Source: a virus
Lineage: Duplodnaviria > Heunggongvirae > Uroviricota > Caudoviricetes
IMG/VR virus record: IMGVR_UViG_2778261642_000006
Direction: 5' to 3' (one strand)
Length of the DNA: 42,980 nucleotides
In this document: positions 3,525 to 42,980 of the stretch, one piece after another
Numbering within the stretch: position 1 is the first letter of the stretch
Layout of the letters: each line of letters begins with the position of its first letter
Position numbers and translations under genes: made by a program
The notes under the pieces: model-generated
The model's database searches: none
What the model was told of the DNA's origin: nothing
Seen by the model: only the letters and a program-made list of their open reading frames with translations

Positions 3525-4151
3525 TCAAAGTGGAGGCTCTGGTAGCGGCATCCAGTACAAGGCGTTCCCTAACCACGATAAAGTGCCGTCGCTCAACTCC
3601 ACGTATTCCCCTTGTACCTGTCCTGCCATATACTCGCCGTGCTTTGAATAAATTAAAATCCAATCATCTTGAGCGGGCATTCGCTCACTACAGCTTATCC
3701 AACCATCCGGAGTTACCGGAGAGTTGCCGGGTTCTTTAATGTGCAATCGAGGCTCACCATCTTTTGGTTCAGGCCACTGGCGCTCCATGTTGATCTTCAA
3801 TTTATTTTCCATTGCAGCGGTAATTTCAGCATCACTGATACCAGCACGGCGCTGTGCATCCCACAACAGAAACTGCATATCAGCCCACTCGCTAAGATCG
3901 TCTGGTTCGGCTGCGGCTTCCAGTGCCTCTTTTGAGAGGTGTTTCAGTGGACCAATGGGGCCAACGCAGCCAAATGTGGAGTCAGACCATTTGGCATGCT
4001 CGTGGCGAATCTGTTCGCGTTCCAGTGATGCCAGTGCAATTCGTGCCAGTTCTTCCGCTTCTTCTGCTGGCAGTACAACGTTGCTACCAGGTCCGTATGT
4101 TTCGCGCCACTGCTTGATTGTCAGCAGTCGATCTTTGGTAATAGTGGTCAT
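3525..4151 (-). CDS. Putative MazG-like dNTP pyrophosphohydrolase with C-terminal DUF551-like domain
   Basis: 208 aa; N-terminal region resembles phage dATP/dGTP pyrophosphohydrolase, C-terminus (…DGWISCSERMPAQDDWILIYSKHGEY…YWMPLPEPP) resembles DUF551; recalled family assignment. Confidence 0.6.
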   Translation of the reverse strand: MTTITKDRLLTIKQWRETYGPGSNVVLPAEEAEELARIALASLEREQIRHEHAKWSDSTFGCVGPIGPLKHLSKEALEAAAEPDDLSEWADMQFLLWDAQRRAGISDAEITAAMENKLKINMERQWPEPKDGEPRLHIKEPGNSPVTPDGWISCSERMPAQDDWILIYSKHGEYMAGQVQGEYVELSDGTLSWLGNALYWMPLPEPPL

Positions 4152-4153
4152 AG

Positions 4154-4345
4154 CTATTTCACCTTAATCTCAACATTTCGCAGCTTTAGCTCCACTGGCA
4201 GGTCTGACTTTCCGGTTAAAGCTAATGCGAGATTTTCTGGAGTAATGAGAGCTGTTATTGTTTTCCCCATCGCCAGACGAATAATCATTCGTATCTCGCA
4301 ATCGTCACATGCTCCCGGTCGAACAATTGATATTTGTCCGTTCAT
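4154..4345 (-). CDS. Hypothetical small protein
   Basis: 63-aa ORF tightly packed between neighbouring genes (stop 3 nt from the next start). Confidence 0.45.
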   Translation of the reverse strand: MNGQISIVRPGACDDCEIRMIIRLAMGKTITALITPENLALALTGKSDLPVELKLRNVEIKVK

Positions 4346-4346
4346 C

Positions 4347-4799
4347 TCACTTCCCCTTCACACCAATGTTGGCGGCGGCGCGCTCGGCTTCACTTTGTTC
4401 CCAAAACCACTTGTGAAGCGCCATAAGCTTTTCGTCAATCGGTGCATATTTGCGATTAAAGTAGGCCTGAGCATCTTTCTCAGATTCGTCCGGTAATTCG
4501 CCAGGGCCAAACAGTGTGTTATAAATCCATGCCAGTCCGCTTTTAGCGTCGCCAGTCGATTGCCATTCGATAATGGCAGCCTGCATGACCAGAATGTTTT
4601 TCCCGATTAATAGGTCCAGTTCTTTGTACCTGTTGCGGATGTATGCATTCTCGCTTTGTAATTCAGCGTTTCGCTTCTCTGCTGCTTCTATCTCATCCAG
4701 CAGCGCGTTAGCTTCATACTCTCTCAACACCACTGTGTCGAAGCTTTCGGCCTGCTTTTTGATTTTTGCAATCAGCGCCTGTTTGTTGATGTTGCTCAT
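4347..4799 (-). CDS. Ea22-like coiled-coil protein
   Basis: 150 aa from MSNINKQ…; GGAG RBS; start overlaps upstream stop as ATGA; coiled-coil composition typical of lambdoid Ea22-like proteins. Confidence 0.55.
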   Translation of the reverse strand: MSNINKQALIAKIKKQAESFDTVVLREYEANALLDEIEAAEKRNAELQSENAYIRNRYKELDLLIGKNILVMQAAIIEWQSTGDAKSGLAWIYNTLFGPGELPDESEKDAQAYFNRKYAPIDEKLMALHKWFWEQSEAERAAANIGVKGK

Positions 4800-5113
4800 T
4801 TGGCGGACTCCTGTGCTCCAAGTTTTGCCCATACTTCAAGGCTGTTATGCGAAATCAGCGCTTCGCGAACGCATGGCCTGTAGTAGTGATGGAAAGCGAA
4901 GGTCATGCCGATCTTTGTCGGGCGATTGTGTTTGCCAAGCAATCCCAGGCGAATACAGATAGTCGTTGCCGTGTAGCCAGAGTGATAGCCAGCAGCACGC
5001 TTCATGACTGTTTCTGCCAGAATGGTGCGGAAATCAGTGCGCCCGAAATTGGTACCTTCGAAAGCGGCGTTAACCACTTCGTCTGTAAGATGTGAATCAT
5101 CAACTATGCTCAT
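4796..5113 (-). CDS. Hypothetical protein
   Basis: 105 aa from [14 protein letters not shown]…; RBS GGGGGAAG; ATGA overlaps on both sides. Confidence 0.5.
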   Translation of the reverse strand: MSIVDDSHLTDEVVNAAFEGTNFGRTDFRTILAETVMKRAAGYHSGYTATTICIRLGLLGKHNRPTKIGMTFAFHHYYRPCVREALISHNSLEVWAKLGAQESAK

Positions 5114-5637
5114 ACCGCTTCCCCCTGACGAAGCTGGGCGGCGAACTCGTCGCATACGTGCGTTAAAGAGCAAATCTGGATAGCAGGATGCTCGCGCAAC
5201 AATTCAACACCCTGCGCCCGTACTTCAGCCAGGAAAGCATCGGTGGCCGGAGTTTCAGGAATCCGTCTCCTCATCAGTTCTATTGCATGATTGAACCCGA
5301 AATCTTCAGCAAGAGATACGTCATCCATATTGTCATTGTCGTCCTCAATATCCCGTGGTTCTGGAATTGCAGACTTTATTACCGCATTCTCCGCCGCTAG
5401 CGCCGAAAACTTCTCGTGTGCCAACTTAACAGCCGCATCAGCCTGCTTAATTGACTCAATCGCTTTCTGGTGGTCTTCGGACAGAGCCGAAATCTTGGCC
5501 TCCGCTTCAGCAAATTTACGCACCAGATATTCAGCGTTTGTTTCGTTAACCTTTAAATCTCGCGGGATGCATTTACCTTTCAGAAATCCATCCATCTCAA
5601 TTAGTGACATTTGTTTCATTTCTTCCCACTCCGCCAC
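5110..5637 (-). CDS. Ea22-like coiled-coil protein (start uncertain)
   Basis: 175-aa ORF; acidic coiled-coil sequence; several candidate start Mets near 5637. Confidence 0.5.
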
Positions 5638-37898: not shown

Positions 37899-40550
37899 AT
37901 GACAGACATTACAGCCAATGTTGTAGTGAGTATGCCTTCGCAACTCTTCACTATGGCGCGTTCTTTTAAAGCCGTAGCCAATGGCAAAATTTATATCGGT
38001 AAAATTGACACTGACCCGGTAAATCCTGAAAACCGGATTCAGGTTTATGTGGAGAACGAAGACGGCTCTCACGTTCCTGTATCGCAGCCAATCATCATTA
38101 ACGCTGCCGGATATCCTGTATATAACGGACAGATTGCCAAATTCGTTACTGTACAGGGCCATTCTATGGCTGTTTATGATGCGTATGGTTCGCAGCAGTT
38201 CTATTTTCCAAACATTCTGAAATATGATCCTGATCAGTTTAAACAAGAACTAGAGAATAAATTTAACAATGGTTCAACTCCATCAATTATAAATTATAAG
38301 TACGGTCTTCCAGAAGAAGTAGACGGAGCAACACAAAGGACGCTACAGGATAAACTTGATGACCATGTAAATGTTCGCGATTTTGGTGCAAAAGGGGATG
38401 GCATTACTGACGATACAGACGCAATAACAAGTGCCATCATTTACTGCGCATCTAACGGAAAACGCCTGAAGTGGGATTCTGGTGTGTATTTGATTAGCCG
38501 CATAAAATGCGGCGGGGATAATTATAACTATGACTGGGTAGCTGATGGCAAGGTTGTCTTAAAGTCAACCGCAAAAGAGCCTCTTGGCCCAAACTGGATT
38601 GATGATTATTTCATAAGACTCGAAGGTGGAGATGCCACGCCAATTGACTATAATTCAACAATAAATCCTGGTGACACATCAATATCAATTAACTCAGCAT
38701 ACTCTGTTGATGCAGGCGATATAATTATGATTCATGGCAATCGCTTAATTCAGACAGATAATAGAGGACAGGCTTGTGAAGGTGAAATGCATGTTGTTAC
38801 TGCTTTTGATAATGCAACAAAAAAAGCGGAGATATCAGGTGCATTTTATTTTTTCTACTCTGCGAGCAATGATTACTCAACGACCGTAACAGCATCTGTA
38901 TCCGGAGGTGAATTCTCATTTGGTAATGATGCAACATTAACAAAACAATACAATCAGGTAAAAGTAACAGGTGTCACCGGAGCTAACGCCGGAACATCAA
39001 GATACATAACTCATTGGGATTACGACACTAAAACAGCAAAATTTGAATATGCTCAGGGACCATTCCCGTTTAAACCATCTGTTGGAGACGTGTTTAAAAT
39101 CACAAGAAAGGCAAATATATATAAAAGAAAACCATGCTACGGCAGAATTGTTGGTGATTTCAATTTTGAAAGACCTGTCACGCAGAACGCATCTCCTGGT
39201 GATTTGGGGTTCCGTGGTCTTGTGATAGATGGCGCTGTTGATATGCATATAGAAGGAATAAAACTAATCGGCTTTTCAGAAACTGGAATTTTTCTTGAGT
39301 CATGCTACAGAACGAAAATAATAGAACCATATATTGAATACTCAAACCGTGCATATGATTTAACAAACGGCACTGGTTATGGTGTTGAAATATACAATAG
39401 CAGCTATTGCACAGTCGTGGATATGATAGCATTTGCTTGCAGGAGGGGGCTTGATGTAAGCGGGACTCAAATGGTATCACTGTATAATAACATTATAAAT
39501 CCAACGATGATGGGTGGTGGAACTGCATATGATGGAGTTAAATTTTTCCCTGATGGCGATACAAGAAATTCATGTTGCGGTGGACACGGCCCATCATACG
39601 AAACAACTTTTACAGGCGGCAATTCAGTCAATTTGTATTATGCTGGTGTAATACGCGGATTAAATGAAGTGTATGATGGAATGAACGCCAGGGGATTTAG
39701 CGGCCCGGCTCCTTTTTTTGTAAGATATAGTGGTGGTGGGTTCACGATTCAGAACTGTAATTATATTGATGGTTTTACTGAGATGTCTTTGCCATACAAC
39801 TTGAGGTACAAACCTGTGAATGCAACTCAACGTAATCACAGACCTCTTGTTTTTATTGAAACAACTCTGGCACAGACAGACAGAAACTCTTACTATAAAG
39901 AACTTCCTGTTGTTATTAAAAATAATACCGCAAGGACTGTTCTCAAGGGCTTTTTACGTTTTGAGGTTAATGATGGCCTCACCCCTCTAATCCAAAATAT
40001 TTATTTTGGTGGTAATTTATGTATGGCGAACCCAGAAACATCAGACTCTGTATCAGGGCAAACAGAGGCAGTAATGGTTTATTCATCTGTTCCTGGTGCA
40101 ATAATTGTTCGAAATTTCCATGATCTTGGCGGTAACAGAATTGTTCCTGTTGGAGCAGGATACAGATACTGCGGTATGTTCAACACGCCAGATGGAATAG
40201 CAGGAACAATAGTTCAACCAGACGGAAAATATCTAATAACACTTGAAGCCAACAAATCTACAAGTATCCTTGTTGGTGGATACGTACCATGTGTTCGCCT
40301 TGATATGCACGACATACTTGATATTCATGGGGTAATTGCAGTTGGTGTTCTTATTCATCGTGGTGAGGCAATTGATTTTTCTCCTTTAAAAGAAATTAAT
40401 AAGCAAAATGTTGTATTGAAAACCGGAGTTCTTTCAGATAATGATGGTGATGAAAATAACTTAAATATTTCGTTTGACTTTGCAACCATATATTTAAGCA
40501 ACAAGATGCCAAATAAGATTCAACTATCTATTGAAGTATCAGGAGTGTAA
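37899..40550 (+). CDS. Tailspike protein: P22-type head-binding domain plus long divergent beta-helix receptor-binding domain
   Basis: N-terminus [59 protein letters not shown]… matches recalled P22 gp9 N-terminus; 883 aa total. Confidence 0.9.
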
Positions 40551-41159: not shown

Positions 41160-41174
41160 GCTTTTTTATACTAA
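41160..41174. repeat. attR core (GCTTTTTTATACTAA)
   Basis: Exact repeat of the attL core, followed by attB-like …cttgagcgaaacggg. Confidence 0.85.
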
Positions 41175-41264: not shown

Positions 41265-41741
41265 TTAACTAAACATCGCAGTAATCGAGGCACTCGCCAG
41301 AGAGTGAAAATGAACGTTAAACCCGACCATCGCGCCGCTGGCACCTTCATCGACATCAATACGTTCTACATCCAGCGCGTGAACGGTAAAAATGTAGCGA
41401 TGGGTTTCGCCTTTCGGCGGCGCTGCGCCATCGTACCCGGTTTTACCAAAGTCGGTACGCGTCTGCAAAACGCCGTCTGGCATAGCTACCAGACCAGAGC
41501 CAAACCCTTGCGGTAATACGCGGGTATCAGCGGGTAAATTAACAACTACCCAGTGCCACCAGCCGGAGCCGGTTGGCGCATCCGGGTCATAGCAGGTGAC
41601 AACAAAACTTTTCGTTCCCACAGGAACATCATCCCACGCCAGATGCGGTGAAATATTATCGCCATCGTAACCCATGCCGTTAAAGACATGACGATGCGGC
41701 AGCTTATCGCCATCGCGCAGATCGTTACTGATGAGTTTCAT
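41265..41741 (-). CDS. ybhB: Host PEBP/UPF0098-family protein YbhB-like
   Basis: 158 aa; PEBP-like motifs (…CYDPDAPTGSGWWHWVVVNLP…); recalled as the gene on the bio side of attB-lambda. Confidence 0.85.
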   Translation of the reverse strand: MKLISNDLRDGDKLPHRHVFNGMGYDGDNISPHLAWDDVPVGTKSFVVTCYDPDAPTGSGWWHWVVVNLPADTRVLPQGFGSGLVAMPDGVLQTRTDFGKTGYDGAAPPKGETHRYIFTVHALDVERIDVDEGASGAMVGFNVHFHSLASASITAMFS

Positions 41742-41849
41742 TAGAATGCCTCCGGGAAACCTCGGCCTTCAGACCGGGGAGGAAAGGAGGCGGTTTTCCG
41801 ACTAACTGTACTTTGCATAATCACATTTTCCTCTTTAGTATGTGAACAC

Positions 41850-42980
41850 ATGAAACGCGCATATAAATACCGGTTTTACCCGACAACTGAGCAGGCTGAG
41901 CTTTTAGCTCAGACGTTTGGCTGTGTGCGCTTCGTCTACAATTCCATCCTTCGTTGGCGTACCGATGCGTACTACGAGCGAAAAGAAAAGATCGGTTATC
42001 TACAGGCCAACGCTCGCCTTACGGCGCTCAAAAAAGAGCCTGAATACATATGGCTGAATGATGTTTCCTGCGTTCCCCTCCAGCAGTCGTTGCGCCACCA
42101 ACAAGCCGCCTTTGCTAACTTCTTTGCCGGACGAGCTGCATATCCGGCTTTCAAAAGCAAACGGCACAAACAGGTGGCTGAGTTCACTGCCAGCGCGTTT
42201 AAACACCGTGACGGCGAGTTGTATATAGCAAAGAGCAAGTCGCCGCTGGATGTTCGCTGGAGTCGAGAATTACCATCTGCGCCGTCAACCGTTACCATTT
42301 CCAGAGATAGCGCTGGCAGGTACTTTGTTTCCTGCCTGTGTGAGTTTGAACCTGTATCAATGCCTGTTACCGCTAAAACGGTCGGCATTGATGTGGGCTT
42401 AAAAGATTTATTCGTCACCGATACCGGATTCAAAACCGACAATCCCCGCCACACCGCTAAATATGCGAAGCGATTAACGCTGCTACAGCGACGTTTAAGC
42501 AGGAAGCAAAAAGGCTCAAGAAACCGTATTAAAGCCCGCTTAAAGGTCGCCCGACTCCACGCGAAAATCGCCGATTGCCGGATGGACAATCTGCACAAGT
42601 TGTCCCGCAAACTGATTAACGAAAACCAAGTTGTTTGCGTCGAATCCCTCAAGGTGAAAAACATGATCCGCAACCCGAAGCTGTCTAAAGCAATAGCTGA
42701 CGCAGGCTGGAGCGAACTTGTTCGCCAGCTCCAGTACAAAGGCAAATGGGCCGGGCGGTCAGTGGTCGCCATTGACCAGTATTTACCGTCCTCAAAATGC
42801 TGTAGTTGCTGCGGTTTCACCATGCAAAAAATGCCTCTTAATGTTCGTAAATGGCACTGCCCTGAATGCGGCGCAGACCATGATCGCGACATTAACGCGG
42901 CACGTAATATTAAAGCTGCCGGGCTGGCAGTGTTAGCCCACGGAGAGCCTGTAAACCCTGAATCGCAGCACGCGGCTTAG
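41850..42980 (+). CDS. tnpB: IS200/IS605-family TnpB (OrfB) RuvC-like nuclease
   Basis: 376 aa; N-terminus MKRAYKYRFYPTTEQ; RuvC-like motifs (GIDVGLKDLFV, …DHDRDINAARNI) and zinc finger (CCSCCG…CPECG); stop codon is the last 3 nt of the window. Confidence 0.85.
   Translation: MKRAYKYRFYPTTEQAELLAQTFGCVRFVYNSILRWRTDAYYERKEKIGYLQANARLTALKKEPEYIWLNDVSCVPLQQSLRHQQAAFANFFAGRAAYPAFKSKRHKQVAEFTASAFKHRDGELYIAKSKSPLDVRWSRELPSAPSTVTISRDSAGRYFVSCLCEFEPVSMPVTAKTVGIDVGLKDLFVTDTGFKTDNPRHTAKYAKRLTLLQRRLSRKQKGSRNRIKARLKVARLHAKIADCRMDNLHKLSRKLINENQVVCVESLKVKNMIRNPKLSKAIADAGWSELVRQLQYKGKWAGRSVVAIDQYLPSSKCCSCCGFTMQKMPLNVRKWHCPECGADHDRDINAARNIKAAGLAVLAHGEPVNPESQHAA

Follow-up and report, generated by a model that had tools for sequence, protein, structure and literature searches.

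A tnpB-only IS200/IS605-type element between ybhB and bioA of Escherichia coli

At the right-hand end of the window, i.e., the whole 42,980-nucleotide stretch of DNA analyzed here (IMG/VR virus record IMGVR_UViG_2778261642_000006), two genes diverge from each other: ybhB and a tnpB gene. The first-pass annotation of this DNA had described the latter as a solo tnpB of the IS200/IS605 type of insertion sequence (IS). Our analysis indicates that it very probably belongs to a 1,291-bp non-autonomous, tnpB-only IS200/IS605 element of the IS1341 type, which, by a single insertion, separated the ybhB ATG from its ribosome-binding site and which combines an intact TnpB with an omegaRNA whose guide is derived from the flanking DNA. 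E. coli YP3, a canine isolate, matches the whole window at 100%, and the element region is 100% identical in CFT073, Nissle 1917, ATCC 25922, LF82, NRG 857C, and many other strains. The genomes of YP3 and CFT073 served to extend the sequence beyond the window. The coordinates of the features are collected in Table 1; L numbers designate the collected loci, L001 being that of CFT073.

The tnpB gene and the ends of the element

The product of tnpB is apparently an intact RNA-guided endonuclease TnpB of the IS200/IS605 family, as judged from its sequence, and the gene already carries the name "RNA-guided endonuclease InsQ/TnpB family protein" in RefSeq (WP_000817269.1). Its domain architecture is complete, comprising an N-terminal HTH/WED-REC region, an OrfB_IS605 RuvC core, and a C-terminal zinc ribbon (TNB). 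Specifically, Pfam matches well above the cut-off were obtained for HTH_OrfB_IS605 (PF12323, residues 1 to 45), OrfB_IS605 (PF01385, residues 172 to 274), and Cas12f1-like_TNB (PF07282, residues 287 to 354). The NCBIfam model guided_TnpB (NF040570) scored 369.5 bits against a cut-off of 100, and IS200_TnpB (NF038281) scored 400 bits, slightly short of its strict "exception" cut-off of 425. In a search of the Protein Data Bank, residues 3 to 369 aligned with ISDra2 TnpB (8BF8, 8EXA, 8H1J) at an E value of 9e-75. According to this alignment, the RuvC triad is intact (D181 in GIDVG, E265 in CVESL, and D347 in HDRDIN, corresponding to GVDVG, GTEHL, and HDRDEN of ISDra2), and the zinc-finger cysteines (C317/318/320/321 and C337/340, CxxC...CxxC) are conserved. 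The earlier description of a full-length TnpB with RuvC-like motifs and a zinc finger is thus borne out. With 376 residues, the protein is full length for its clade, the members of which comprise 373 to 381 residues, and intact 376-residue orthologues occur in many genera. Across genera, the clade is under strong purifying selection: the ratio of nonsynonymous to synonymous divergence (dN/dS) of tnpB was 0.07 to 0.13 in comparison with nine orthologues of 83 to 90% identity.

The boundaries of the element were derived from a comparison of the occupied site of CFT073 with the empty site of K-12 and from 27 relatives. In K-12, bioA and ybhB are adjacent, with AAGGAGGGTTC right before the ybhB ATG, and the empty site reads ...GATGAGTTTCAT/GAACCCTCCTTTC... 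(the slash marks the junction; also written ...GAGTTTCAT/GAACCC...). In CFT073 and YP3, tnpB sits between the two genes, and the occupied site of CFT073 reads ...GATGAGTTTCAT/TAGAATGCCTCC... at the left and ...GGGGAGCCGTCAA/GAGCCCTCCTTTC... at the right of the element. The comparison defines a clean 1,291-bp insert 3' of TTCAT, which directly precedes it in CFT073, and no target duplication accompanies the insertion. The element spans window position 41742, which the first-pass annotation had given as a start coordinate and which proved to be the exact first base, to position 43032; its right terminus, ...GTCAA, is located 52 bp past the window end. This 52-bp right end downstream of the tnpB stop was seen in both YP3 and CFT073, in line with the earlier expectation that the right end lies beyond the window, and the extended sequence revealed neither a frameshift nor a truncation. 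In the relatives, left-end homology begins at the identical base, whereas at the right it ends at the common GTCAA (about 45 loci), every locus having its own flank beyond.

The ends are of the IS200/IS605 type, with subterminal palindromes and with insertion 3' of a short motif. NTCAT flanks relatives of the same type at 15 of 16 independent sites, and TTCAT is the candidate target motif or transposon-adjacent motif (TAM) of the E. coli element. There are no terminal inverted repeats; the left palindrome starts approximately 8 to 20 nt inside the left boundary, the right palindrome stops approximately 9 nt short of the right terminus, and both feature a TTCAG loop and a GGGGAG 3' arm. The z-scores of single-sequence RNA and DNA folds were unremarkable (-1.2 to -2.0), with -1.2 and -2.0 for the palindromes, so that the support for the latter is positional and comparative. 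A short target motif beside the left end, subterminal palindromes, and a TCAA-type right terminus constitute the pattern of IS608 and ISDra2. Of the features that the annotation had left to be sought, the end structures and the left end could hence be identified, together with a candidate TAM.

The insertion separates the ybhB ribosome-binding site (AAGGAGGGCTC, now located past the right end) from the ybhB ATG. Read on the ybhB strand, the left end of the element runs up to the start codon as GGAGGCATTCTA/ATG, which places a GGAGG sequence 7 nt before the ybhB ATG. The two start codons are separated by a gap of 108 nt, and the ATG of tnpB begins at the 109th base after ybhB, in agreement with the distance of 109 bp given previously.

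A transposase gene was searched for by tblastn with three Y1 TnpA queries, those of IS200C, L077, and L056, against the window and all loci collected. No tnpA was detected in the window (best E value, 0.5), as the annotation had stated, nor in the flanks of the element in CFT073 (approximately 6 kb on each side) or in YP3, and none of the 79 related loci described below has a cognate tnpA beside it, the tblastn matches there being due to unrelated elements. Because tnpA is missing from the window, the flanks, and the 79 loci, the element is classified as tnpB-only and non-autonomous (IS1341 type). The absence of tnpA beside tnpB is the usual condition, since approximately 25% of tnpB genes have a tnpA nearby and approximately 75% do not (Meers et al., 10.1101/2023.03.14.532601).

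Two transposase candidates were rejected. In L077 (2524-3597), an IS200-like tnpA (137 residues) is located right before a tnpB lacking everything ahead of the RuvC-I motif; the DNA upstream of this tnpA is unlike the left ends of the family, pointing to a different IS that inserted into a tnpB and truncated it. IS200C is common in E. coli: its tnpA occurs in 2,582 of 5,426 genomes, and at least two carriers of the element (SCU-112 and ATCC 25922) are among them. Judged by a comparison of the ends, which look unrelated to those of the element, IS200C is an unlikely mobilizer.

Table 1. Positions of the element, its parts, and neighboring features
Feature	Position in window	Strand	Remarks
TTCAT, target motif or TAM candidate	41737..41741	+	adjoins left end; CAT is the ybhB ATG on the opposite strand; kept in K-12 empty site
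Left end, 108 bp, starting TAGAATGCCTCCGGG	41742..41849	+	from empty-site comparison and start of homology to relatives
Subterminal imperfect palindrome of left end, CCTCCGGGAAACCTCGGCCTTCAGACCGGGGAGG	41749..41782	+	DNA fold stem; resembles right-end palindrome TCCCCGTCATTCAGGGCGGGGAG
tnpB coding sequence	41850..42980	+	ATG start; 376 residues; TAG stop is the final base of the window
Predicted omegaRNA (reRNA) scaffold, 5' part, overlapping the tnpB end	42915..42980	+	RNAalifold covariation; runs 52 nt beyond the window to ...GCCGTCAA, then guide
ybhB	41265..41741	-	NCBIfam PRK10257, 343 bits; RefSeq ybhB
Lambda-type att core, GCTTTTTTATACTAA	1331-1345 and 41160..41174	+	two exact copies, 0 expected by chance; prophage boundaries
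Start-codon docking loci	41737-41760		further loci: L005, L006, L007, L012, L014, L082 (3886-3905), L086, L125, L169, L181

RNA scaffold and guide

RNAalifold, applied to the last 190 nt of 27 elements, predicted 33 base pairs, with compensatory double changes at 19 of them. In the alignment, 94.7% of the cells pair, compared to 81% after shuffling and 38 to 52% when the partners were slid by one to three columns, and in 500 shuffles none reached any of the five observed covariation measures. The well-supported helices start inside tnpB, at window position 42915, and extend to the right end, so that the scaffold comprises at least the last approximately 65 nt of tnpB plus the 52-bp right end. 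As the fold energies were unremarkable, the structural claim rests on covariation. Consistently, the last 78 nt of the open reading frame (ORF) show a 3- to 9-fold reduction in synonymous divergence from eight of nine orthologues, and third-position identity reaches 0.78 to 0.94 over the overlap of RNA and ORF, compared to a baseline of approximately 0.55. Directly after GTCAA the sequence becomes variable, as for a guide read from flanking DNA. These data point to a structured omegaRNA that comprises both the tnpB 3' end and the right end, with a variable guide from the flank following it; the proposal of the first-pass annotation that the guide RNA derives from the gene 3' end and the IS right end thereby gains a covariation-supported scaffold across both. 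The predicted guide is GAGCCCTCCTTTCTAG in YP3 and GAGCCCTCCTTTCTTG (…CTTG) in CFT073, which differ by a single base (L084 7834-7849 versus L001 7834-7849).

No Rfam family matched the scaffold at its gathering threshold, and the two informative matches were both below it. The best match, RAGATH-18 (RF03064; 29 bits, E = 0.001, threshold 44.9), covers L001 7738-7803, corresponding to window position 42937 to 23 nt past the window end, and retains the GGAG...CG-UGAA...GGAA core and both stems; it signifies resemblance rather than membership. RAGATH-18 is the core of IS607 reRNAs (PMC11061315). The second match, to sot0042, a sense-overlapping transcript of an archaeal IS1341-type gene, was obtained at the scaffold position with 11.8 bits versus a threshold of 88 and reflects a common architecture, not membership in the RNA family.

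Elevated third-codon-position identity among 11 orthologues (0.77 to 0.87, compared to approximately 0.55 elsewhere in tnpB) was also observed at window positions 42540-42660 and 42780-42860, well 5' of the covariation-supported scaffold. These stretches could belong to an omegaRNA that extends further 5', could hold an internal promoter, or could result from recombination.

Distribution and insertion sites

The element matches 391 of 5,426 complete E. coli genomes, with 346 chromosomal and 46 plasmid places. Nearly all chromosomal places (342 of 346) include the ybhB junction, and in 342 genomes the element is joined to ybhB; 333 genomes carry it at ≥99% identity. Chromosomal carriers make up approximately 6% of the E. 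coli genomes and are mainly B2-type. The chromosomal element looks like a single old insertion that has been inherited vertically, and it is apparently immobile in E. coli. An empty allele exactly matching the guide flank of CFT073 (TTCAT plus GAGCCCTCCTTTCTTGTTTGCAGAAA, a 26-nt match), which begins TTCAT-GAGCCC, is present in 824 of the 5,426 genomes (15%). In strain 23CRST027 (L083, NZ_AP045789.1), ybhB, with an internal stop, and tnpB, frameshifted and 14 bp shorter, are both annotated as pseudogenes; these lesions could be real decay or an assembly error.

The plasmid copies represent a different member, with 81% DNA identity, which resides in approximately 46 P1-like phage-plasmids of E. 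coli. In one of these, L082 (NZ_CP027133.1 5752-14907), tnpB (4003-5133) is positioned directly before the start codon of a "head processing protein" gene, and a separate IS200C copy is located 1.2 kb from the tnpB element.

A scan of one genome per species yielded 79 related loci with 62 to 90% protein identity in Serratia, Citrobacter, Salmonella arizonae and diarizonae, Klebsiella, Leclercia, Escherichia whittamii, Erwinia, Pantoea, Providencia, Zobellella, and Endozoicomonas, the last genus and Zobellella having many copies per genome. The same type of element (81 to 90% identity) was found at 16 or more different sites in other enterobacteria, plasmids, and phages. The relatives in Endozoicomonas and other Endozoicomonadaceae (L031-L079, e.g., OZ246962.1) share 62 to 68% identity and reach 15 or more copies on a single chromosome. 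TTTAC or ATTAC adjoins them, their right end is longer, extending approximately 90 to 118 bp after the stop, and no cognate tnpA was present within 3 kb of them.

For the analysis of insertion sites, 16 independent insertions were available, which stem from the scan of species, from metagenome and viral scans, and from P1-like plasmids. In the metagenome and viral pattern scans, 72 of 127 stretches (74 of 129 matches) were chance matches to a 19-mer and were discarded by requiring an extended left end. In 11 of the 16 insertions, the CAT of NTCAT, which is the reverse complement of ATGAN, coincides with the start codon of a real, oppositely oriented gene. Docked in this way, the element parts the ATG from the native ribosome-binding site, and a GGAGG in the left end comes to lie 7 nt before the ATG. 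The genes concerned are ybhB, two TraD/TraG-like genes, trbI, and genes for a GT9 heptosyltransferase, an NAD-binding dehydrogenase, a DUF3142 protein, an Fe-S protein, a lambda-type tail protein Z (matched from model position 1), and a baseplate hub protein, as well as the P1 head-processing gene. Note that the two TraD/TraG-like genes are homologous to each other and possibly represent one old insertion. ORFs of 140 or more residues begin at 17% of the ATGA sites in the same DNA; against this background, the binomial probability of 11 or more docked cases among 16 is 7e-6, and with a rough null of 28%, which considers non-disruptive sites only, it is 8e-4. In most docked cases the right-end flank, i.e., the guide, holds the displaced native ribosome-binding site. 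In a sister group with TTTAT or TTTAC targets, the start of the left end is without a GGAGG-like sequence, and the motif cannot contain a start codon.

We tentatively suggest, with somewhat more doubt than conviction, that the clade may be adapted to dock between ribosome-binding site and ATG by means of a portable GGAGG and possibly an outward promoter, as a result of which its guides match displaced ribosome-binding regions. Survivorship of harmless insertions accounts for part of the pattern. For TnpB overall, no orientation bias was reported (Meers et al., 10.1101/2023.03.14.532601), and no description of the docking pattern was found in the literature. If docking is a selected property, it would show how a nuclease-bearing transposon lowers the cost of its insertion and persists without a transposase.

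Proposed function and alternative explanations

The locus can be explained by a one-time insertion 3' of TTCAT, which would have split the bioA-ybhB pair and would afterwards have been inherited at that site. The guide would be read from the flanking host DNA (GAGCCCTCCTTTCT...), and the analogy to ISDra2 and Geobacillus TnpB suggests that the complex of TnpB and omegaRNA would recognize TTCAT followed by a guide-matching sequence, i.e., the element-free allele. TnpB would then cut this empty allele, and recombinational repair from an element-bearing copy would restore or spread the element. Self-cutting of the carrier chromosome would be prevented because there GTCAA, and not the TAM, precedes the guide match. 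By the same analogy, the element is presumably expressed, its TnpB is a probable nuclease that depends on the TAM, and its mobilization would be brought about in trans by a Y1 TnpA.

These assumptions are modeled on characterized relatives. ISDra2 TnpB of Deinococcus radiodurans (Karvelis et al. 2021, PMC8612924) has the same three-domain layout with a RuvC D-E-D triad and a CxxC...CxxC zinc finger, and ISDra2 likewise combines a scaffold over the tnpB 3' end and the right end with a flank-read guide and a 5-nt T-rich target motif beside the left end. It differs in the size of its TnpB (408 versus 376 residues) and in its TAM, which is TTGAT, whereas TTCAT is the probable one here (NTCAT in relatives); moreover, the element described here is without a tnpA partner. 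Elements of the IS1341 group, including the IS1341-type genes of Halobacterium with sot0042, also possess tnpB alone between IS200/IS605-type ends and a structured sense RNA that extends over the gene 3' end, where sot0042 matches weakly; the hosts in our case are gammaproteobacteria, unlike Halobacterium. The ISGst TnpB/IscB elements of Geobacillus stearothermophilus (Meers et al. 2023, 10.1101/2023.03.14.532601) resemble the E. coli element in being tnpB-only and mobilized in trans (presumed here), in a left-flank TAM that equals the TnpA target, and in a conserved motif closing the right end; their proposed role is to cut the empty donor site so that the element is retained. TTCAT is the TAM of ISGst5, an IscB element, whereas that of Geobacillus TnpB2 is TTTAT. 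In Geobacillus, a cognate TnpA was identified and the elements are multi-copy; here none was found, and the element is single-copy in E. coli.

Several observations weigh against a functional element in E. coli. Only one chromosomal site was found among the E. coli copies examined, with no sign of recent transposition; at least one copy, a divergent chromosomal one, occupies the same site and is frameshifted; and the cognate tnpA is missing beside all 79 related loci. The E. coli copies are at least 99% identical, which makes selection on this copy unmeasurable. No sigma-70-type promoter for tnpB passed the promoter scan, and expression or activity of the E. coli copy is a matter of inference. 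Furthermore, the most common empty allele, the K-12 type (GAACCC, approximately 3,838 genomes), has a mismatch at guide position 3, beside the TAM, and the guides of YP3 and CFT073 differ at position 15.

The main rival explanation draws on these observations and regards the element as an inert fossil, a remnant stranded in E. coli that would owe its intact ORF to nothing but the recency of the insertion relative to the mutation rate and whose protein and RNA would both be without function today. The single site in all carriers, the missing tnpA, the frameshifted copy, the lack of a clear promoter, and an identity too high for selection to be detected would all be expected of such a remnant. 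However, no damage is seen in the ORF, the catalytic residues, either end, or the RNA scaffold, and 333 genomes carry the element at ≥99% identity; the clade to which it belongs is under strong purifying selection, with intact orthologues in many genera; and DNA cleavage by TnpB independent of TnpA has been established for ISDra2 (PMC8612924). We regard a fossil as unlikely.

Considerably less likely still is a domesticated TnpB, acting either as a TldR-like RNA-guided regulator of ybhB or the bio genes or through a left end that was kept for the translation or transcription of ybhB. TldR proteins are reportedly nuclease-dead and truncated. Like a TldR gene, the element consists of a solo tnpB-like gene with a constant chromosomal location next to a particular host gene, in this case between the ybhB ribosome-binding site and the ATG, with the GGAGG of the left end 7 nt upstream of the latter and a guide complementary to the displaced ribosome-binding region. 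Unlike in TldR, the catalytic triad, zinc finger, and C-terminus of the full-length protein and both transposon ends are intact, and self-binding is not expected, as the guide match in the carrier follows GTCAA instead of a TAM. The same architecture moreover recurs at many unrelated genes occupied by the same type of element, which suggests a property of the element and not of ybhB. A promoter-like sequence in the left end, TTCACA-18-GATTAT with an upstream TG (window 41817-41846, L001 6618-6647, minus strand), faces ybhB and would suit a regulatory role; however, such outward matches were no more frequent than expected by chance (2 found, 1.3 expected).

Assignment to a different family, i.e., an IS607-type TnpB with a serine-recombinase partner or a Cas12f-like type V CRISPR effector, has a negligible probability: the weaker NCBIfam matches to IS607_TnpB (170 bits), C2c8, and Cas12f2 are far under their cut-offs of 350 to 450 bits, compared to the 400 bits for IS200_TnpB, no repeat array is present in L001 5900-8000, and the subterminal palindromes, the 5-nt target motif, and the TCAA-type terminus are of the IS200/IS605 type. 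The best Rfam match does point to IS607 reRNAs (Ren et al. 2024, PMC11061315), with which the scaffold shares the core and both stems of RAGATH-18, but those RNAs are located wholly downstream of the gene, whereas the motif here overlaps the ORF as in IS200/IS605 elements. Both identities were thus rejected on the basis of the model scores, the ends, the RNA overlap, and the missing array.

The object next to ybhB is a non-autonomous IS200/IS605 TnpB element of an ordinary kind that databases already annotate; it is of little consequence as found and conforms to the ISDra2/ISGst model. No publication on it was found in literature searches for TnpB in CFT073 and for ybhB/bioA/IS605. Its value is that of a compact 376-residue relative of ISDra2 TnpB, native to E. 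coli and routinely annotated in CFT073, Nissle 1917, ATCC 25922, LF82, and E2348/69-type strains, for which the boundaries, a candidate TAM, and a predicted omegaRNA are now defined. With matching targets in 15% of E. coli genomes, it would lend itself to studies, within its own host and also in the probiotic Nissle strain, of retention or allele conversion driven by TnpB.

The remainder of the window is largely phage DNA. The att cores enclose a P22-like prophage of approximately 39.8 kb with a tailspike gene (37899-40550) and an Arc-family repressor. At both ends the window extends beyond the prophage, and ybhB and the element lie outside it. That tnpB might be cargo of this prophage can be dismissed: it is located only 676 bp from the right att core, the IMG/VR-type window extends through it, and related copies occur in phage genomes and P1-like phage-plasmids, but the att cores (1331/41160) bound the prophage with ybhB between it and the IS, its end is common to only 2 genomes compared to approximately 340 for the IS, and CFT073 and many other strains carry the identical element at the same site next to an att site without a prophage. 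The ybhB-IS junction is where many IMG/VR prophage calls end.

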